64,000 bases of DNA from an uncultured Candidatus Saccharibacteria bacterium (GTDB lineage: Bacteria; Patescibacteriota; Minisyncoccia; Phycocordibacterales; UBA5272), in assembly GCA_964464695.1 (NCBI GenBank), contig CAYXKW010000006.1, positions 2,489 through 66,488 of the forward strand, in the 5' to 3' direction. Positions 22,077-53,018 of this stretch are shown in pieces. Both the position numbers and the translations under genes were made by a program. Under the pieces are notes generated by a model. That model was not told the origin of the DNA and made no database searches. It saw only the letters and a list, made by a program, of their open reading frames with translations. Numbering within the stretch: the first letter of the stretch is position 1; each line of letters starts with the position of its first letter.

Positions 22077-22640
22077 ATGAAAAATAAATTACTTATTGGG
22101 TTCCTTATTGTTATTGTTGGTATGGGCTTATGGGCTATTTCTGCGTATAACATGTTAGCTAAAGGGAATGTTGCTGTAGATTCTAAATGGGCGCAAGTCG
22201 AAACTCAGTATCAACGTCGATTAGATTTAATTCCTAATCTGGTTTCTTCTGTTCAAGGAATATTTACTCAAGAAAAAGATGTGTTTACTGCAATTGCAGA
22301 AGCGAGAAAAGGTTATGCTGGCGCAACCACTGTGGACGAAAAAGCGGCTGCAGCAACTAATGTAGAAAGATCTCTTGGACGACTTTTAGTTATTACTGAA
22401 AATTACCCACAACTTTCTTCGAACCAAACAGTGCAAAATCTAATGACTCAACTTGAGGGGGCAGAAAATAGAATTTCTGTGGAAAGAAAAAGATACAATG
22501 ACGAGGTAACAATATTCAATACTCATCTTGTCACATTTCCGTATACCATCATAGCTCCGATGTTTGGTTTCACTAAACGATCTTTTTTTGAAGCAGATCA
22601 AAACGCATCCATTGCACCCGTCGTTAAATTTAATCAATAA
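22077..22640 (+). CDS. LemA family protein (second copy)
   Basis: TM followed by QYQRRLDLIPNLVSSVQG; paralogous to 20493..21053. Confidence 0.8.
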   Translation: MKNKLLIGFLIVIVGMGLWAISAYNMLAKGNVAVDSKWAQVETQYQRRLDLIPNLVSSVQGIFTQEKDVFTAIAEARKGYAGATTVDEKAAAATNVERSLGRLLVITENYPQLSSNQTVQNLMTQLEGAENRISVERKRYNDEVTIFNTHLVTFPYTIIAPMFGFTKRSFFEADQNASIAPVVKFNQ

Positions 22641-38766: not shown

Positions 38767-39243
38767 ATGATAAAAGTTGCAGATCTTTATAGTGGTGGTT
38801 ATTTTACAGCACTGCAAACAAGTCGAATTCTTAGCCAAGTGAGTAGGCCTTTTCTTCAGAAAGAAGATAAGGTGCAGATTGCAAAACATGCGATCGGAGA
38901 ACTTTCTTGGAGTTATAGTACCGGAGGTATTTCTGCAGGCCGTTCCTTGAGGTCAGTTGTTTTAGATGAAGCTATTTCTTGCCTCAACTCTGACCTCATT
39001 GAAGAAACTAAAGAACTGATTGCTGTTTTACTTGCAATGTATCACAGTGCAGACTATATCAATAAAAAAAATTGGTATGACTACCATGTGACTATGGAGA
39101 GTCTTCCGGTTCAGCACAGAATATGGCTTTTAACGATTGCGTATGGGCTTAATGTTACTGAAATGCCAGATATTACTACTTGTACAGATGAATATATTTT
39201 TGCATTAGTGGCAACATCAAAAACTACAAGGCGAAAGAAATGA
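38767..39243 (+). CDS. Hypothetical protein (158 aa)
   Basis: ORF with no recognisable motif; immediately upstream of lepA. Confidence 0.3.
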   Translation: MIKVADLYSGGYFTALQTSRILSQVSRPFLQKEDKVQIAKHAIGELSWSYSTGGISAGRSLRSVVLDEAISCLNSDLIEETKELIAVLLAMYHSADYINKKNWYDYHVTMESLPVQHRIWLLTIAYGLNVTEMPDITTCTDEYIFALVATSKTTRRKK

Positions 39244-45176: not shown

Positions 45177-47330
45177 TTACCAATGAGTTATCATGAGAAG
45201 CTCATCGTCATCTTTTCGTACGTACTTCCATAGCTCTTCTGTGATAAAAGGCATAAATGGGTGAAGTGTGATGAGTTGTTCACGCAAAAGTGTTATAAGG
45301 AGTAACTGAGCACTGTCTTTGTCATTGTTTTCTAAGATTCTTACTTTTCTCGTTTCAATTATCTCGTCACAGAATGTTTTCCAGAAATAATCATACATTT
45401 TTTCTGATGCAAGGTGAAGTCGATAGTTTTCAAGGTCACTCGTAATATCTTTATGAGCTTCTCGCCACGCGTCATATACGGCTTTATCTTCATCAGTAAA
45501 TGATGTGATAGGGGAATTACTGAAATCAGCTGTTCTTTCTAATACGAATCGCGCTGCATTCCATATTTTATTGGCAAACATCTTGTATGCCTTTACCTTA
45601 TCCTCACTTAGTTTTAGGTCATTCCCTGGGCCATTTGCAACCATAAGTGACATACGAAGTGCGTCTGTTCCGTATTTAGAAGAAAGATCTCGTGGATCAA
45701 GAACATTTCCAATTGATTTACTCATTTTTTTACCTTGAGCATCACGAACAAGACCATGTAAGTACACATGCTTAAACGGCACTTCGTTTAATGCATATGT
45801 TGAGAACAAGACCATACGCGCAACCCAAAAGAAAAGAATATCGTGACCAGTCTCAAGTAGGTCTGTTGTGTGGAATGTTTTTAAGTCCAAGGTTTCTTGT
45901 GGCCACCCAAGTGTAGAAAATGTCCACATACCAGAAGAGAACCATGTGTCTAAGGTGTCCTCATCTTGTACCCATCCATCTCCAACAGGTGCTTCTACTC
46001 CAACATAGATTTCTTCTCCTTTGTACCAAACAGGGATTCGGTGTCCGTACCAAATCTGTCGTGATATACACCAGTCGCGAAGATTTTCTATCCAGTGGAA
46101 GTAGACCTTCTCGAAACGCTCAGGTAATACGACCGTTTTCTTACTTTCAACTGCTTCCCTCATCAGATTTTTAAGAGTTGTTTCTTTTCCAAAATGTGTA
46201 AATGGTTTATTGACTGCAACGAACCATTGTTTCATAATTTGCGGTTCAATAATTCCTCCTGTTCGCTCTGCTGTTGAAATATTGTGAGTATAGTCTTCTA
46301 CTTTCTCAACAAGACCTTTTGATTCTAATTTTGCAACAATTTTTTCACGAACATCTTTTATTTTTAGTCCTTTGAACTCTTCTCCGCACACAGGAAGGAG
46401 TTTTCCGTATTTATCAATTATTTGTTCGTAGTCTAGTTTATACTTCTGAGCAATTTCAAAGTCCACAACAGAATGCCATGGGGTAATCGTCATAACACCG
46501 CTTCCAAATGTTGGGTCAGCAGATTCATCCTTGATAATAGTTGCTTCAATAGGGCCATTGATCCACTCAACGGTTAGTTTTTGTCCATGAGTGTATTCTT
46601 TGTAGCGCTCATCATCAGGATGCATGACCACATACTTGTCACCAAACTTTGTTTCAGGACGTGCAGTACCTATGGTGAATGGTCCATACTTAAAGTAATA
46701 GAATTTTGTTTTTTCTTCAACGTAGACGAGTTCATCATCAGAAATAGTTGTTTGGCCTTTTGGGTCCCAGTTTACAATTCTGTGTCCTTGATAAATAAGA
46801 CCATCTTCGTACATTTTTTTGAACATGGTCTTTACAGCTAGGTTTCGAGTGTCATCAATTGTAAAAGCAAGCCGAGACCAATCTAGTGATGCACCCATTG
46901 AGCGGAATTGTGAGAGGATTGTATCTTGAGAAGCAAGAGCAAACTCATTGATACGACGGAGAGTCTCTTCACGCCCTAAATCATGACGAGATTTACCTTC
47001 TTCTTTCATTATTTTTTTCTCAACAACTGACTGAGTGGCAATAGCCGCGTGATCTGTTCCTGGTAACCATAATGTCTTATATCCTTGCATTCGCTTGTAA
47101 CGAATGAGTGTATCTTGAATAGCAAGCATGATTGCATGTCCTGCATGAAGTGTTCCGGTAACGTTCGGAGGAGGTAATATAATAGTATATGCGTCTTTTC
47201 TTCCGCCCGGTAGATTATCCGGGTTGAAATATCCACTTTCTTCCCAGATAGTATAAAGTGACTTTTCAACCTTTTCAGCATCGAACGGCTTCATGAGTTC
47301 TGATAAATCTTTGTTGGCATCTTGTTTCAT
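45177..47330 (-). CDS. valS: Valine--tRNA ligase, compact form (717 aa, no C-terminal coiled coil)
   Basis: PPPNVTGTLHAGHA (HIGH), LWLPGTDHAAIATQ, KMSKSIGNV (KMSKS); the ValRS-specific PGxDHAGIATQ motif is present. Confidence 0.8.
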   Translation of the reverse strand: MKQDANKDLSELMKPFDAEKVEKSLYTIWEESGYFNPDNLPGGRKDAYTIILPPPNVTGTLHAGHAIMLAIQDTLIRYKRMQGYKTLWLPGTDHAAIATQSVVEKKIMKEEGKSRHDLGREETLRRINEFALASQDTILSQFRSMGASLDWSRLAFTIDDTRNLAVKTMFKKMYEDGLIYQGHRIVNWDPKGQTTISDDELVYVEEKTKFYYFKYGPFTIGTARPETKFGDKYVVMHPDDERYKEYTHGQKLTVEWINGPIEATIIKDESADPTFGSGVMTITPWHSVVDFEIAQKYKLDYEQIIDKYGKLLPVCGEEFKGLKIKDVREKIVAKLESKGLVEKVEDYTHNISTAERTGGIIEPQIMKQWFVAVNKPFTHFGKETTLKNLMREAVESKKTVVLPERFEKVYFHWIENLRDWCISRQIWYGHRIPVWYKGEEIYVGVEAPVGDGWVQDEDTLDTWFSSGMWTFSTLGWPQETLDLKTFHTTDLLETGHDILFFWVARMVLFSTYALNEVPFKHVYLHGLVRDAQGKKMSKSIGNVLDPRDLSSKYGTDALRMSLMVANGPGNDLKLSEDKVKAYKMFANKIWNAARFVLERTADFSNSPITSFTDEDKAVYDAWREAHKDITSDLENYRLHLASEKMYDYFWKTFCDEIIETRKVRILENNDKDSAQLLLITLLREQLITLHPFMPFITEELWKYVRKDDDELLMITHW

Positions 47331-47440: not shown

Positions 47441-48028
47441 ATGAAGAAAAACATTAAGAATAAGCAGTCTGTTATTTTACAGAAAGGTGGGAAAATAAAT
47501 AGAGAGGCGGTTAAAAAAATTAGTAAAGCAGTTGCAAAGCATTCCGCAAAAAAGATTTTTATGAAAGTTGGAGGAAAGGAGATAGAAGTTAAACTTCCAG
47601 ATCATCATTTCAAGCAAGTGAAAGTAAAGCGTGGATTAGACGGTCTTGGGCTTTTTGCAGGTGAAGACATTAAGAAAGGGGAAATGATTATAGAATACAT
47701 TGGGAATATTTTAAATAAAGAAGAAGCTGCAAAGATTGCAACGAATCAATATTTATTTGAGGTAAACAAAAACAAAACAATCGACGGAACCGTAAGATGG
47801 AATATTGCGCGATACTGCAATCATGCATGTGAAGAAGCGGGGAACGCCGAAAGTGAAGTTAAAAAAGGAAGAGTCTTTATTAAAGCTATTAAGAATATTA
47901 AAGAAGGGGAAGAAATTGTGTATGATTACGGAGAAGAATTTGTTAATGAGTACATAGCAGATAAAGGTTGCAGGTGTCTTGCGAAAGAACATAGTTACAA
48001 AGCAAAGAAGACAGCTGTTGGTAATTAG
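47441..48028 (+). CDS. SET-domain protein (putative protein-lysine methyltransferase) with a Lys-rich N-terminal region
   Basis: GLGLFAGEDIKKGEMIIEYIG (GxG / N-SET), RYCNHACEEAGNAE (NHSC-like), EEIVYDYGEEF (ELxFDY-like), and a post-SET Cys pair CRCLAKEH. The N-terminal 45 aa are K-rich. Terminator at 48072-48099. Confidence 0.75.
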   Translation: MKKNIKNKQSVILQKGGKINREAVKKISKAVAKHSAKKIFMKVGGKEIEVKLPDHHFKQVKVKRGLDGLGLFAGEDIKKGEMIIEYIGNILNKEEAAKIATNQYLFEVNKNKTIDGTVRWNIARYCNHACEEAGNAESEVKKGRVFIKAIKNIKEGEEIVYDYGEEFVNEYIADKGCRCLAKEHSYKAKKTAVGN

Positions 48029-48189
48029 CTATTAGCTTGTAGCTAATACGAATTCAAATATAAATGAACATAAAAGCGGCCACGAAGTGGCCGCTTTTGT
48101 ATTAAAGCCAACAGCTAAAGGCTAACAGCTAACAGCTATTTATGCGAATACTTCGCATTTGCATAAATATAAAAAACAAAAAACAAAAG

Positions 48190-48198
48190 TTATCCACA
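48190..48198 (+). promoter_or_regulatory. Consensus DnaA box TTATCCACA
   Basis: Exact 9-mer match. Confidence 0.4.
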
Positions 48199-48303
48199 TA
48201 TTTTTGAGTAAACACTATTGTATGTAGTTATGTAAGTGAGATACTTGTATGTAAGAGAGTAATGGTCGTGGTCGCGATCAACATATTACAAGCACTCTCG
48301 GAT

Positions 48304-48312
48304 TTGTATAAT
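48304..48312 (+). promoter_or_regulatory. Extended -10 element TGTATAAT about 14 nt upstream of the H1-like ORF start (leaderless or near-leaderless mRNA)
   Basis: A TGnTATAAT match. No SD between it and ATG 48326. Confidence 0.4.
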
Positions 48313-48325
48313 AAAAATAAATTTT

Positions 48326-48433
48326 ATGGCAGCAAAAAAGAAGGCAGCTAAGAAAGCGGTAAAGAAAGTTGCAAAGAAGGCAGTGAAGAAAGTTGCTAAG
48401 AAGGCAGCTAAGAAGACTGCAAAGCGTGCGTAA
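48326..48433 (+). CDS. 35-aa Lys/Ala-rich histone H1/Hc1-like basic protein (MAAKKKAAKKAVKKVAKKAVKKVAKKAAKKTAKRA), absent from the ORF track
   Basis: Hand-translated ATG..TAA ORF of AKK repeats, like bacterial H1-like nucleoid proteins. Flanked by the extended -10 promoter and a hairpin terminator GAAGCATCA-CTCCCA-TGATGCTTC-T4 (48467-48495). Confidence 0.55.
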   Translation: MAAKKKAAKKAVKKVAKKAVKKVAKKAAKKTAKRA

Positions 48434-48582
48434 TCGCAACTTGCAAAAGTTTGTTCTTTCAGAAAAGAAGCATCACTCCCATGATGCTTCTTTTCTATTT
48501 GGTTAGGATGATATGTTTGCTTTATGTAGATATGTTCATCTAATAAAGTAATCTTGAAATTGATCGATTGCCAGTAATTTAA

Positions 48583-48591
48583 TTATCCAAA
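48583..48591 (+). promoter_or_regulatory. Near-consensus DnaA box TTATCCAAA
   Basis: 8/9 match, in the same orientation as the other two boxes. Confidence 0.3.
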
Positions 48592-48627
48592 AAAATTAGT
48601 CCTACACATTATTTAAGTATAAAATAA

Positions 48628-48636
48628 TTATCCACA
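48628..48636 (+). promoter_or_regulatory. Consensus DnaA box TTATCCACA
   Basis: Exact 9-mer match. Confidence 0.4.
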
Positions 48637-48767
48637 TAAAAACTTTACATACATATAACTTAGGTGTAGTATTCCTATCAGATGTTCATGTTGGTCGAAA
48701 AACAATGTGTGCGTCGTGCATCTGCTCCACCCAATGAGCAGTTCCATCGTCAATCCAGGAGAAATCC

Positions 48768-48929
48768 ATGAAACGTTCCATCGTCGCTCCCGCCGGCCAA
48801 AGCGCCAATTCCGCCGCCTCCGCACACGCTGGCCACAACGCCGTCAACCGCCGTGCCGCCGAAGATCGCTCCAGTCGTGGCAGTACCGTTCACGCTGGCG
48901 TCCACCTCGAAGGCACCATCGGCCGCTGA
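48768..48929 (+). CDS. SD-led 53-aa ORF inside a strongly GC-rich ~300-bp island upstream of secA; coding status uncertain
   Basis: AGGAGAAATCC-ATG gives a strong SD. The product MKRSIVAPAGQSANSAASAHAGHNAVNRRAAEDRSSRGSTVHAGVHLEGTIGR is Ala/Ser/Gly/His/Arg-rich. The region is ~60% GC, and an overlapping 111-aa Arg-rich frame (48707..49042) also stays open. Terminator CCCACC-CCAAA-GGTGGG-T6 at 48983-49005. Confidence 0.2.
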   Translation: MKRSIVAPAGQSANSAASAHAGHNAVNRRAAEDRSSRGSTVHAGVHLEGTIGR

Positions 48930-49063
48930 TACAAGGTCACGTCAACGGCTTCTTCACAGCAAGCTGTACTTTCAGCAAGAAGCCACCCCACCCCAAAGGT
49001 GGGTTTTTTATTGCTGTATCACGACTACATTCTGCATTATAAATATGATATAATCACGTAACT

Positions 49064-51643
49064 ATGTCTTTCATTCACAAGGGTTTAAGTATTATTTTTC
49101 CAGACGAATCCAAAAATACAATTAAAAAGCTTGCGCCTATCGTTGATAAGGTTTTTTCATACGAAGAAGAACTAAAGACCATCTCTGGGGAAGACCTCAA
49201 GGGTAGAAGTCTTGCATTGAAAGAAAAAGTAATGAAAGAGATTTCTGGACTTACCGGAGAGGAATTAAAATTAAAAGAAAAGAAAGTGCTCGAAGATGTT
49301 TTACCTGAAGCGTTTGCGCTTGTGCGCGAAAGTGCCCGTAGAACACTTCACATGATGCATTATCGAGTACAAGTAATTGGTGGTATCTTACTGCACCGTG
49401 GTCATATTGCAGAAATGAGAACAGGTGAAGGAAAGACTCTTGTTGCGACACTACCAGCGTACTTAAATGCACTCACTGGTCGTGGTGTTCATATTGTTAC
49501 GGTGAACGATTACTTGTCTCGACGTGACGCGGTGTGGATGGGGCAGATTTATGATACTTTAGGTATAACAAGTTCAGTTATTAATCATCAGTCATCATTC
49601 ATGTATGACAGTACGCATTTAACAAAAGAAGAAAGTAAAGAAGAAGATGCTGTTCGTGATGAAGTTGGTTCATATAAAGTTGTGTATGAATATTTGAAAC
49701 CATGCAATAGACAAGAAGCGTATCTTGCAGACATTACGTACGGAACCAATAATGAGTTTGGCTTCGATTATCTACGAGATAATATTGGATATGATAAAGC
49801 TGCTATTACTCAACACACACACCACTATGCAATTGTGGACGAAATAGACTCTATATTAATAGACGAAGCACGTACACCGCTTATTATTTCTGCGCCTGCA
49901 TCACAGTCAAGTGATATGTACACGCGTTTTGCGCAAGTTGCCGAGTCACTTGTAGAAGGTGATGATTACACAGTAGATGAAAAGCAACGCGCTATATCAC
50001 TAACTGAGGATGGAATTACAAAAGCAGAAACTGCACTTAATATTTCAAATATCTATTCAGTCGAAGGAATGAAATATGTTCATCACCTAGAGTCAGCCGT
50101 AAAAGCAAAGGCGCTTTTCCTTCGTGAACGAGAATACGTGGTCAAGGATGGTGAGGTTATTATTGTTGATGAATTCACCGGACGCATGCAACCAGGGCGT
50201 AGGTGGTCAGACGGGCTCCATCAGGCGGTAGAAGCAAAAGAAGGTGTGAAGATTGAGCAAGAAAGTCGAACACTTGCTTCTATTACATTCCAGAACTACT
50301 TTAGATTCTACGAGAGACTATCAGGAATGACAGGAACTGCCGATACTTCAAAAGAAGAGTTCTATAAAGTGTACGGCCTTGTTGTTACACCAATCCCAAC
50401 ACATAATCCAATTAATCGTAGAGATCATAGTGATTTTATTTTTCAAACAGAAAAAGGAAAGTGGCAAGCACTTTCAAAAAAAGTAAAAGAACTTCATGCA
50501 AAAGGTCAACCAGTGCTCATTGGTACGATTTCAATTGAGAAAAATGAGGCAATCTCAAAGTATCTTGAACGTGAAGGAGTGCCACACGCAGTGCTTAACG
50601 CGAAGAATCATGAAAAAGAAGGAGAGATTATTGCTGACGCTGGGAAAAAAGGCGCAGTAACAATCGCAACGAACATGGCAGGTCGTGGAGTGGATATTAA
50701 ACTTGGTGGCCCACAGGCGACAGATAGTGAACGCGAGGATGTTCTTGCTCTCGGAGGACTTCTTGTTATCGGTACTGAGCGTCATGAGGCTCGTCGAATT
50801 GATAATCAGTTACGAGGTCGTTCAGGACGACAAGGGGATGCCGGGGAAACACAATTCTATGTGTCACTTGAAGATGATCTTATGCGTGTCTTTGGTTCAC
50901 AGAACATTAAGACAATGATGGGTAAATTTGGAATACCAGAAGATGAGCCAATCGAAAGTAGACTCGTTTCTCGAGCTCTTGAAGGTGCTCAAGAAAAAAT
51001 TGAAGGATTCCATTTTGATACCCGTAAGCACACACTTCAATATGATGATGTGCTCAATCAACAACGTACAAGTATTTACGCAAAACGTCGTAAGATTTTA
51101 TTTGAAGACGATGTTTTTGTTACAGAAGTCTTAGCTGAATTGATCTCGTACAAGCCAGAGTTAGCGGATATTCTTGCAGAAAAAGAGAAAAAATATGAAA
51201 AAGATGCCGTACGACATATTTTCCGGATTATGATGCTTCAGATTATCGATACATTATGGATGGATCATTTGGACGCAATGGAGCACCTTCGTTCAAGTGT
51301 TAACCTTCGAGCGTATGGCCAGAGAGACCCGCTTGTTGAGTACAAGAAAGAAGGTCTACGAGCATTCCGTACACTTGAAGCAACGCTTCGACATGAATTA
51401 ACGATGTTTATTGAAAACATGGATGGATTTTTTGCACAACAACATGCTCGAAATATGGCAGAGAGTAGCTTCGTGTCTGTCATTCCGAGTGTAGAAGGGC
51501 AAACTTCAACAGGGGCTAACCATGCTGAGAGAGTAAAAGTTGGACGTAACGACCCATGTCCATGTGGAAGTGGTAAGAAATGGAAGAAGTGTGGCGAACT
51601 AAATACTGAGGAACATAAAGAGTTGCTCTCAAAAATTGCTTAG
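49064..51643 (+). CDS. secA: Preprotein translocase ATPase SecA
   Basis: DEAD-like motor (GEGKTLVATLPAYLNAL, DEIDSILIDEARTPLIIS), preprotein cross-linking domain, and a C-terminal zinc finger CPCGSGKKWKKC. Confidence 0.95.
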   Translation: MSFIHKGLSIIFPDESKNTIKKLAPIVDKVFSYEEELKTISGEDLKGRSLALKEKVMKEISGLTGEELKLKEKKVLEDVLPEAFALVRESARRTLHMMHYRVQVIGGILLHRGHIAEMRTGEGKTLVATLPAYLNALTGRGVHIVTVNDYLSRRDAVWMGQIYDTLGITSSVINHQSSFMYDSTHLTKEESKEEDAVRDEVGSYKVVYEYLKPCNRQEAYLADITYGTNNEFGFDYLRDNIGYDKAAITQHTHHYAIVDEIDSILIDEARTPLIISAPASQSSDMYTRFAQVAESLVEGDDYTVDEKQRAISLTEDGITKAETALNISNIYSVEGMKYVHHLESAVKAKALFLREREYVVKDGEVIIVDEFTGRMQPGRRWSDGLHQAVEAKEGVKIEQESRTLASITFQNYFRFYERLSGMTGTADTSKEEFYKVYGLVVTPIPTHNPINRRDHSDFIFQTEKGKWQALSKKVKELHAKGQPVLIGTISIEKNEAISKYLEREGVPHAVLNAKNHEKEGEIIADAGKKGAVTIATNMAGRGVDIKLGGPQATDSEREDVLALGGLLVIGTERHEARRIDNQLRGRSGRQGDAGETQFYVSLEDDLMRVFGSQNIKTMMGKFGIPEDEPIESRLVSRALEGAQEKIEGFHFDTRKHTLQYDDVLNQQRTSIYAKRRKILFEDDVFVTEVLAELISYKPELADILAEKEKKYEKDAVRHIFRIMMLQIIDTLWMDHLDAMEHLRSSVNLRAYGQRDPLVEYKKEGLRAFRTLEATLRHELTMFIENMDGFFAQQHARNMAESSFVSVIPSVEGQTSTGANHAERVKVGRNDPCPCGSGKKWKKCGELNTEEHKELLSKIA

Positions 51644-51737: not shown

Positions 51738-53018
51738 ATGAAAGAACTTATTAAAAAATTTGTTGTCAAGGCTCTTATGTGGCAAGCAAAGGCTGTACTT
51801 TTAAGGCATAAACCATTTATTATCGGTGTAACTGGCAATCTTGGTAAGACTTCCACAAAGGATGCAATTTATGCAGTCATGAAAGATCACTTCTATGTAC
51901 GTCGAAGTGAGAAGAGTATGAACAGTGAATTTGGAGTACCTCTTACTATTTTAGGGGAAAAGTCAGGTTGGAATAACCCATTTAGATGGGGGATAATTAT
52001 TGCACGTGGTTTTTTTGTGCCTTTTGCAAAAGAGTACCCAACTCATCTTGTTCTTGAAATTGGTGCTGATAGACCAGGGGATATTAAAAGTATTGCTTCA
52101 TGGGTAAAGCCTGACATTACTGTTGTCACACAGTTTGGACAAGTTCCTGTACATATAGAATTTTTTAAGGACAGAGATGCAGTTGTGGAAGAAAAAGGGT
52201 ATCTCGTTGAAGCACTTAGAGAAAGTGGTGTGTTTATTTTTAATAAAGATGATCATGATGCGGAGAAGCTAGTAATAAAGACTCTTGCACGAAAAGTTAG
52301 TATTGGAATTCATGAAGCGTCAGATATTCACGCAACACATGTAAAAATGTACGGCGATCCACTTGCGGGTACTGAAGCGGATGTTATAGTTGATGGTAAG
52401 AATCATCATCTAGTCTTGCCTGAGGTTGTTGGTAAGTCACCTGTATATTGTGCACTACCAGCGCTTGCAGTAGCTCATGAGCTTGCTATTCCTCTTGAGA
52501 TAGCATGCGCATCATTACGAGATGCTGATAAACCAAAAGGAAGAATGCGACTTCTTTCTGGAATGAATGAATCGATGATTATTGACGATTCGTATAATGC
52601 CTCACCAAAAGCTACAGAGCATGGACTTAAGAGTCTAAGTGAAATAGAAACAACGGGGAGAAAAATAGCTGTACTTGGAGACATGCTTGAGCTTGGTGAT
52701 CATACACGAGATGAGCATTATAAAATGGGGAAGGTTGCAGCGAAATGTTCTCATAAACTTTTCACCGTTGGAATACGTGCAAAAGTTATTGCGGAAGGTG
52801 CTCTTGATGAAAAGATGTTAGATGACAATATCATGCAGTGTGACTCATCAATTGATGCTGGAAAAGAATTGGTAAAAATACTTCAAAAAGGTGACGTTGT
52901 TTATATAAAAGGTTCACAAGGTGTTCGAATGGAACGAGCAATTAAAATGATACTGGCAAGCACCCATAATCCAGCATCTGTTCTTGTTCGACAAGAAGAT
53001 GAGTGGTTGCGAAGATAG
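51738..53018 (+). CDS. murF: UDP-N-acetylmuramoyl-tripeptide--D-alanyl-D-alanine ligase
   Basis: IIGVTGNLGKTSTKDA P-loop variant and DDSYNASPKATEHGLKSL (the MurF DDSYNANP motif). Confidence 0.75.
   Translation: MKELIKKFVVKALMWQAKAVLLRHKPFIIGVTGNLGKTSTKDAIYAVMKDHFYVRRSEKSMNSEFGVPLTILGEKSGWNNPFRWGIIIARGFFVPFAKEYPTHLVLEIGADRPGDIKSIASWVKPDITVVTQFGQVPVHIEFFKDRDAVVEEKGYLVEALRESGVFIFNKDDHDAEKLVIKTLARKVSIGIHEASDIHATHVKMYGDPLAGTEADVIVDGKNHHLVLPEVVGKSPVYCALPALAVAHELAIPLEIACASLRDADKPKGRMRLLSGMNESMIIDDSYNASPKATEHGLKSLSEIETTGRKIAVLGDMLELGDHTRDEHYKMGKVAAKCSHKLFTVGIRAKVIAEGALDEKMLDDNIMQCDSSIDAGKELVKILQKGDVVYIKGSQGVRMERAIKMILASTHNPASVLVRQEDEWLRR

Follow-up and report, generated by a model that had tools for sequence, protein, structure and literature searches.

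The stretch of DNA analysed here (the window) is 64,000 nucleotides (nt) long and belongs to contig CAYXKW010000006.1 of an uncultured bacterium (assembly GCA_964464695.1). Our subject is a GC-rich element that lies directly upstream of its secA gene. The best matches of the encoded SecA are metagenome-assembled genomes labelled Candidatus Paceibacterota, Parcubacteria or 'Saccharibacteria', and the host genome is one of the Patescibacteria/Paceibacterota (candidate phyla radiation). The element is preceded by genes for ValRS (45177-47330, minus strand), a SET-domain protein (47441-48028) and a Lys/Ala-rich protein of 35 amino acids (aa), called KA below (48326-48433, with its own terminator at 48461-48496). 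It is followed directly by secA (49064-51643) and then by a Mur ligase gene (51738-53018). On balance, and with some reserve, we regard the element as an autonomous accessory small gene of ~330 nt, made up of a promoter, structured ends, a 53-codon frame and a terminator, which occupies a hypervariable slot and is not a regulator of secA. That it forms an independent accessory unit is held with fairly high confidence.

Relative to its closest relatives the window carries an insertion between the KA-gene terminator and the secA promoter (48501..49043, plus strand). Alignment and gene tables show that in these relatives, loci L206 and L207 (SecA 91% identical), the two features are separated by 16 nt, against 543 nt in the window. 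The initial annotation had drawn attention to a GC-rich island at this place, and the base composition agrees: 48700-49010 has a GC content of 58.5%, 48707-48990 of 60.6% and the open reading frame (ORF) at 48768-48929 of 66.7%, against a mean of 38.6% for the window. Averaged over 150 nt, the peak reaches 69.3% GC, which is 5.8 standard deviations above the mean and the highest value in the 64 kb, the runner-up being 56.7%. The island is identical to the last base in two independent assemblies of the same species (JGI 3300056624 and Logan SRR12762274) and is therefore not a chimera or an assembly artefact.

The left part of the insertion (48501..48643, no strand assigned) is AT-rich (~24% GC) and contains a direct repeat with the DnaA-box-like sequences TTATCCAAA (48583) and TTATCCACA (48628). 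A promoter-like site on the plus strand, TTTACA-17 nt-TAGTAT (48644..48672), was located by a consensus scan and by alignments. It is followed at the predicted transcript start by a 5' stem-loop seen in the folds (48680..48723, plus strand; AGAUG/CAUCU and CAUGUUG/CAAUGUG). A possible leaderless frame of 29 codons, ORF1 (MFMLVEKQCVRRASAPPNEQFHRQSRRNP; 48682..48771, plus strand), was found by sequence and translation and is of uncertain status. Its ATG at 48682 sits 9 nt past the -10 box, the same geometry as at secA, and its TGA overlaps the start of the next frame as ATGA.

That next frame, ORF2 (48768..48929, plus strand), is the GC-rich core of the element; it has 53 codons and the peptide sequence MKRSIVAPAGQSANSAASAHAGHNAVNRRAAEDRSSRGSTVHAGVHLEGTIGR. 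Both ORF2 and the AGGAG that precedes it by 6 nt (48757..48761, plus strand), a sequence resembling a Shine-Dalgarno (SD) site, are present as initially annotated. The near-duplicate peptide start noted there corresponds to a direct repeat of 23 nt (48734-48756 and 48768-48790, 78% identical) with a spacing of 34 nt, which places the two copies out of frame with each other. A 16-nt local duplication, GTTCCATCGTCAATCC (48741..48756, plus strand), belongs to this repeat and is absent from the homologue described below. An Arg-rich open frame of 111 aa overlaps ORF2 (48707-49042); it was correctly noted before but ends 21 nt, not 22 nt, ahead of the secA ATG.

Downstream of ORF2 a 3' stem-loop (48947..48984, plus strand) with outer stem GGCUUCUU/AAGAAGCC was predicted by folding, and it includes the plus-strand motif UCAGCAAGAA (48972-48981) with an inner hairpin. 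An intrinsic terminator follows (48987..49009, plus strand), made up of CCCACC-CCAAA-GGTGGG (48987-49003) and a run of six T (49004-49009). This is the terminator of the initial annotation, which had placed it 59 nt before secA; the end of the stem is 60 nt and the end of the T-run 54 nt before the secA ATG. The distance from the ORF2 stop codon to this ATG is 134 nt. The element is bounded by, and does not include, the secA start region (49046..49066, plus strand), in which an extended -10 box, TGATATAAT (49046-49054), is followed after 9 nt by the ATG at 49064.

The L013 homologue and the predicted RNA ends

A homologous element was found in locus L013 (JAGORG010000002), whose SecA is 76% identical and where the element also lies immediately 5' of the secA promoter. 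Window and L013 share TTTAC(A/T)-17 nt-TAGTAT, a 5' segment beginning 9 nt after the -10 box, AGGAGAnnTCC(A/G)TG, a 17-nt block CATCnnCGCTCCCnCCG, a short C-rich frame, a 3' hairpin with AGCUGUA..UCAGCAAGAA and, at the same place, a terminator of L013's own. The modules are 62% and 73% identical, compared with 71% for the secA DNA. Since this divergence matches that of secA, the copies appear to be old and not the product of recent transfer between these two lineages.

The two hairpins have been kept despite this divergence. The 5' stems AGAUG/CAUCU and CAUGUUG/CAAUGUG of the window are AGGUG/CACCU and CAUGGUG/CACUGUG in L013, which amounts to two compensatory double changes with no pair broken. 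The 3' stem GGCUUCUU/AAGAAGCC is GGGAU(U)UCUU/AAGAAUCCC in L013, with one compensatory pair, one added pair and again none broken. Taking both hairpins together, 21 of the 24 comparable pairs are the same in both lineages, 3 differ on both sides and not one is broken, and the probability of finding no broken pair would be <=0.0025 under neutral change at 15-35% per site. Given that the homologue is as diverged as the flanking genes and that compensatory changes keep the hairpins, the element is judged to be neither junk nor recent.

Folding of the flanks and of the core gave opposite results. When compared with shuffled controls the flanks had z = -2.6 and -5.3, the latter for 48946-49010 (3' stem-loop and terminator), and the whole L013 transcript had z = -3.9. 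For the core (48768-48945), 191 of 200 shuffles folded better than the real sequence (z = +1.54). The suggestion that the island is a GC-rich structured RNA thus holds for its flanks but fails for the GC-rich core itself, which is less folded than its shuffles. A scan of 48000-49500 against Rfam 15 gave no match within 48500-49063 at E-values up to 1, only tRNAs were found at gathering scores in the window and six related loci, and ARAGORN reported nothing in the island.

These features suggest how the element may work. Transcription would start ~7-8 nt after TAGTAT (48667-48672), near 48680, and the first 44 nt of the RNA would fold into the stem-loop. The conserved AGGAGA and start codon would then open a short frame, of 53 codons here and 23 in L013, and the conserved 3' stem-loop and intrinsic terminator would end the RNA before the secA promoter. 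Expression of secA would proceed from its own promoter, apart from the element. It is also possible that in both lineages ORF2 is reached by ribosomes that load at the 5' end, because ORF1 ends on the ORF2 start in the window and the equivalent GTG frame of L013 is fused in frame with ORF2. Counting against such loading, the ATG at 48682 is paired inside the conserved 5' hairpin and ORF1 aligns in frame with L013 over the first ~12 codons only.

Coding signature and possible function of the short frame

The base composition of ORF2 depends strongly on codon position. Third positions are 67% C, 20% T, 11% A and 2% G, the last being one G in 53, that of the ATG itself. Third-position G is absent throughout 48771-48929 and is back immediately outside ORF2. 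The pattern is present in both halves of the frame, sets in at the start codon and is gone at the stop codon. Its periodicity was matched by 0 of 20,000 shuffles for the window and by 196 of 20,000 for L013, and in both the frame is the one set by the start codon, which is GTG in L013. With three-base periodicity confined so exactly to ORF2, it can be said with moderate confidence that the frame is, or recently was, translated.

Protein searches covered ORF2, ORF1, the 111-aa frame, the antisense frame and the L013 frame. Sequence searches of Pfam, NCBIfam, PHROGs, PADLOC and the PDB gave nothing credible, a word-indexed search gave no protein homologous to ORF2 or to the antisense frame, and searches of phage and plasmid DNA gave no match. 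A composition scan for further ORFs rich in C and poor in G at third positions was too noisy for use.

A number of observations weigh against a functional small gene with a translated frame. ORF2 does not resemble the genes of its host: the third-position C content given above compares with 13% (standard deviation 5.5%, maximum 36%) in 1,285 host windows of 53 codons, and an index similar to the codon adaptation index is 0.36 for ORF2 and 0.69 (standard deviation 0.055) for the host. This does not make it similar to a GC-rich donor, as codons ending in G are avoided and the Lys, Gln and Glu codons end in A. The peptides of the window (53 aa) and L013 (23 aa) are not significantly similar and their C-termini differ (...EGTIGR and ...GRATN), and the internal duplications of ORF2 bring one and the same motif into different frames. 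ORF2 is not among the genes called in the source assemblies, and an exhaustive HMMER search of 1.84 billion protein representatives produced a single match, a tandem-repeat artefact, and no homologue. SD-like cores are not enriched before host genes, so the 'perfect SD' of the initial annotation is weaker evidence here than in other genomes. The covariation comes from one pairwise comparison in which the structures were themselves derived from the same two sequences, and both transcription and translation of the element are predicted from sequence.

Our reading of these data is that the lineages would have kept no given peptide but an unstructured tract rich in C and poor in G, along with the initiation region and the structured ends. 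The element would then be an orphan small gene in which nucleotide composition, rather than the peptide, seems preserved, and its transcript may be a patchily distributed small-ORF mRNA that possibly also acts as RNA. Peptide-encoding small RNAs (sRNAs) of dual function are known, among them RNAIII/hld, SgrS/SgrT and SR1/SR1P. The element resembles these in that it is a short unit with structured ends and its own predicted promoter and terminator, contains a small ORF preceded by an SD-like site, and is conserved as RNA. It differs from them in having no sequence or Rfam relationship and in being found in two Paceibacterota lineages only. If more members turn up, the element would be a test case for RNA versus peptide selection in the small ORFs of uncultivated bacteria.

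The alternative that survives best, possible although we consider it unlikely, is that the element encodes a non-coding, trans-acting sRNA. In such an RNA the structured ends would stabilise a C-rich, G-poor, single-stranded body, which with its repeated GCUCC(C/A) and CCUCC motifs would pair with G-rich targets or bind a protein, and the ORF would be incidental or vestigial. The peptides are not conserved, whereas the hairpins and the 17-nt RNA block are, and the core avoids structure. Selection on the RNA strand is also suggested, since synonymous positions are C-rich too and G is avoided even where two-fold codons ending in a purine take A. The recurrence of one motif in different frames and the near absence of SD usage in the genome point the same way. 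What this alternative does not account for is the very strong periodicity, which runs in a single frame through both halves and is bounded exactly by the start and stop codons of ORF2, or the conservation in L013 of AGGAGA and a start codon at fixed spacing; moreover no Rfam family was matched and no target identified.

C-rich-motif sRNAs are familiar from the Firmicutes, where RsaE/RoxS and the UCCC-motif Rsa RNAs usually target G-rich ribosome-binding regions. Like these, the element would give an RNA that ends in a terminator and has several C-rich motifs left unpaired (GCUCCC, CCUCC), which could pair with such regions. Unlike them, it is about three times longer, its C-rich part is a periodic ORF and not a set of hairpin loops, it has no Rfam match and its host barely uses SD sites, so that the usual class of target would be scarce.

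A more speculative view, to which we attach little weight, is that the element represents an undescribed small-RNA family of the Paceibacterota in which a tract that is translated, though free in sequence, would be selected for being C-rich, G-poor and unstructured between two protective hairpins. Such a tract could act as RNA during translation, as a docking site for a C-binding protein or Rho, or could serve as an anti-SD-like sponge in an otherwise leaderless and SD-poor genome. Ribosomes might be delivered to it from a 5'-terminal start codon by way of the ORF1 ATGA overlap in the window and the fused frames in L013.

The insertion slot

The initial annotation had proposed asking whether the island precedes secA in related genomes. 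It does not in the closest ones, although their secA promoter and start are unchanged; the element is absent from L206, L207, L213 and others. Profiles of the 5' and 3' modules were run with nhmmer against 93 relevant loci and the window, and recovered only the window, its identical copies and L013. In a neighbour-joining tree the window stands beside L206 and L207, which lack the element, while L013, which has it, branches near the base. Given that the island is an insertion relative to sister lineages and is patchily distributed, it is best regarded as accessory DNA. A wider scan of metagenomes with the 3' motif AAGCTGTAN{1,3}TCAGCAAGAA suffered from the looseness of the motif and returned at least 120 chance matches, with none in the right context among the matches listed, and three motif scans of viral contigs gave 0 matches. 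Only two distinct sequences of the element, those of the window and L013, were thus available for comparison, and with two sequences the finding is by itself a modest one.

The same slot is filled with differing cargo in ~25 relatives. Among those at 79-88% identity it contains nothing in L213, short spacers in L005-L007 and L063, an unrelated 58-aa ORF in L001, a helix-turn-helix protein in L066, a protein of 102-118 aa in L002, L003, L004, L010 and L212, a hairpin-bounded sRNA-like piece in L208 and L209, and two reverse genes in L211. In more distant relatives secA follows the KA terminator directly. The slot is reminiscent of flexible genomic islets, in which variable cargo occupies a fixed intergenic hot spot between conserved genes: here, too, close relatives carry unrelated small genes or nothing between conserved flanks. 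It differs in its tiny scale (0-3 kb) and in that no integrase, repeats or target-site duplication were found. It is a very small hot spot for accessory small genes beside an essential gene in the reduced genomes of the candidate phyla radiation.

The foregoing bears on whether the island is inert foreign DNA, either a recent capture from a GC-rich donor gene or a decaying pseudogene, in both cases without function. The initial annotation had offered a horizontally acquired fragment as one explanation, and this is upheld to the extent that the island is a patchily distributed insertion, foreign to its host in both composition and codon use; other GC-rich insertions lie nearby in L011 and L002. 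It is not upheld for junk or a recent arrival, since L013 has a homologue in the same slot. That homologue is as diverged as the flanking genes and the GC-rich core has been kept in two AT-rich genomes, as have the promoter, the AGGAGA with its start codon and the terminator, and compensatory changes maintain both hairpins. In addition, third-position G is close to zero and purine-ending codons use A where a GC-rich donor would use G, and no donor was found in protein searches of either strand or in phage or plasmid DNA. Inert DNA is thus considered improbable.

Three other origins were considered for parts of the insertion and rejected. Ends of a mobile element were sought by repeat analysis and by eye, and neither terminal inverted repeats nor a duplicated target were seen. 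A local duplication of the promoter or 3' untranslated region of the KA gene was discarded as the similarity is marginal and not common to L013. A relationship to the L208 filler through TCAGCAAGAA was also discarded, this 10-mer occurring about eight times by chance in the relevant loci.

Some further features of the slot and its surroundings were recorded. The sRNA-like piece of L208 (130-330) and L209 (2290-2385) is different from the element; it is closed by GGTTTGAAAACC...GGTTTTCAAAC, is variable in its interior, and has a -10-like AGTAT before it and an A-rich tail after it. The 58-aa ORF of L001 (3697-3873) is preceded by AAAGGAAAGGAAG, and a direct repeat, GTGGCGTCAGCC(A/T)AGGG, occurs in this locus at ~3622 and ~3760. 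The GC-rich insertions of L011 (2650-3306) and L002 (1520-2300) lie between the SET and KA genes and have 55-70% GC in genomes of ~40% GC; the former is a 218-aa ORF, and in the latter a run of N interrupts the sequence. Foreign DNA seems to be taken up readily in this neighbourhood. In the KA-gene terminator (48461-48496 in the window; also L001, L003, L005, L006, L007, L010 and L013) the loop CUCCCA, which is anti-SD-like, is invariant while the stem sequence is wholly changed between lineages, and in more distant relatives the loop is CCGCAA.

The DnaA-box consensus, TTATCCACA, occurs in perfect form twice within 440 nt here (the boxes listed are 48190-48198, 48583-48591 and 48628-48636) and once elsewhere in the 64 kb (60478). 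A GTTATCCACA box 5' of the KA gene is conserved in distant relatives (L020, L026, L030, L035, L060). A replication origin was considered on account of the TTATCCACA boxes and rejected. As the GC skew does not switch within the window, the DnaA-box-like sites are probably associated with promoters rather than with oriC.

Relation to secA

In ~23 close relatives secA has the arrangement TGnTATAAT, exactly 9 nt and ATG, with no SD, whatever lies upstream, and several distant relatives have TGnTAAAAT followed by ~9 nt. The host genome as a whole looks largely leaderless and free of SD sites, judging from its start regions. SD-like cores precede 3 of 46 long ORFs, which equals the 7% seen at internal ATGs, while a -10-like hexamer TAnnnT ends 5-11 nt before 30% of start codons and 9% of internal ATGs, a threefold excess. 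Apparent examples of the leaderless type are found at 22077, 26712, 27342 and 49064; the ORF at 38767 is preceded by GGGAGG, one of the few strong SD sites. Given that its -10 box lies at a conserved 9 nt from the ATG and that an SD is lacking, secA is likely to have an essentially leaderless mRNA, made from its own promoter and without dependence on the element. On a read-through RNA the secA AUG would be internal and without an SD, and would presumably be poorly used.

The main interpretation in the initial annotation was that the island encodes an upstream regulatory peptide or attenuator of secA. Substrates that monitor secretion are recognised as small ORFs of unknown function directly 5' of a sec or yidC gene, with an N-terminal signal or transmembrane segment, a motif conserved at the C-terminus and a spacer of >30 residues that separates the arrest site from the localisation signal, and their distribution is patchy (PMC10987492). 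As with SecM, MifM, VemP, ApcA, ApdA and ApdP, the element has a small unannotated ORF directly 5' of secA and is patchy among relatives. The likeness does not go further. ORF2 has no hydrophobic segment (GRAVY -0.53, maximum Kyte-Doolittle value over 11 residues 0.65), and hence by hydropathy no signal or transmembrane segment. No RAPP, RAPG, RAGP, GIRAGP-like or [RHQ][AG]P[PG] motif is present in any forward frame, so that on both counts the initial annotation had been right. There is no conserved C-terminal arrest motif and no spacer from signal to arrest site, the L013 ORF having 23 codons in all. Such a peptide should moreover share its transcript with a downstream gene whose SD is hidden in a stem-loop until the stalled ribosome opens it. 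The element is probably not co-transcribed with secA since a terminator intervenes, and secA has no SD masked by a stem-loop.

Regulation in cis, whether by an arrest peptide of the SecM, MifM or VemP type or by a leader-peptide attenuator with read-through of the terminator, would gain from the position of the element immediately 5' of secA in both carriers, from its combination of a small ORF with a terminator and from the patchy distribution of arrest peptides (PMC10987492). Against it, the element is missing from the closest relatives even though secA promoter and start are unchanged there. An attenuator's leader should be kept wherever the gene context is kept, whereas here the geometry of the secA promoter is the same with or without the element. 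The secA -10 box is conserved 9 nt before the ATG and there is no SD, and therefore nothing for a stalled ribosome to unmask. The terminator of an attenuator should compete with an antiterminator pairing that depends on where the ribosome stands. In minimum free energy (MFE) and centroid folds the 3' hairpin and the terminator are separate, non-overlapping helices. No obvious antiterminator pairing, competitor of the terminator arms or upstream GGUGGG-like partner was seen by eye or in the MFE folds, no dedicated search for alternative structures having been run. With the C-termini differing as well and neither a signal segment nor a RAPP-like motif present, it is very unlikely that the island is a SecM-like sensor or attenuator of secA. 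A tempting lead is thereby removed: in this clade no SecM-like monitor precedes secA, which appears leaderless with a promoter of its own.

Least probable of all is a minus-strand gene for a glycine-rich peptide, using the exact antisense frame at 48750-48905 (Gly/Ala/Val/Thr-rich, 67% G at first positions), for this frame is open for 63 codons and shares the periodicity by being in exact codon register, but has no ATG and only a GTG start without upstream signal, matched no homologue in the protein searches, its L013 counterpart is not among the listed ORFs of >=30 aa, and the promoter, the T-run of the terminator and the AGGAGA with its start codon are all plus-oriented in both lineages. The element is also unlike a type I toxin-antitoxin system, which combines a small hydrophobic membrane peptide with an antisense RNA overlapping it, in that all the candidate peptides are hydrophilic and there are no convincing minus-strand signals.

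Two observations apart from the autonomous accessory small gene favoured here may be added. In the JGI assembly of the same species (L081, 3740-6108) secA is broken into at least 7 called ORFs, and a homopolymer is A8 where the window has A7 near 48586; this has the look of indel errors from long-read assembly and not of a pseudogene. The window also has a second GC-rich patch (1830-2058, 54% GC) at the 3' end of a 624-aa ORF (161-2035), with apparent short tandem repeats and an out-of-frame translation in which TNTNPRTY recurs.

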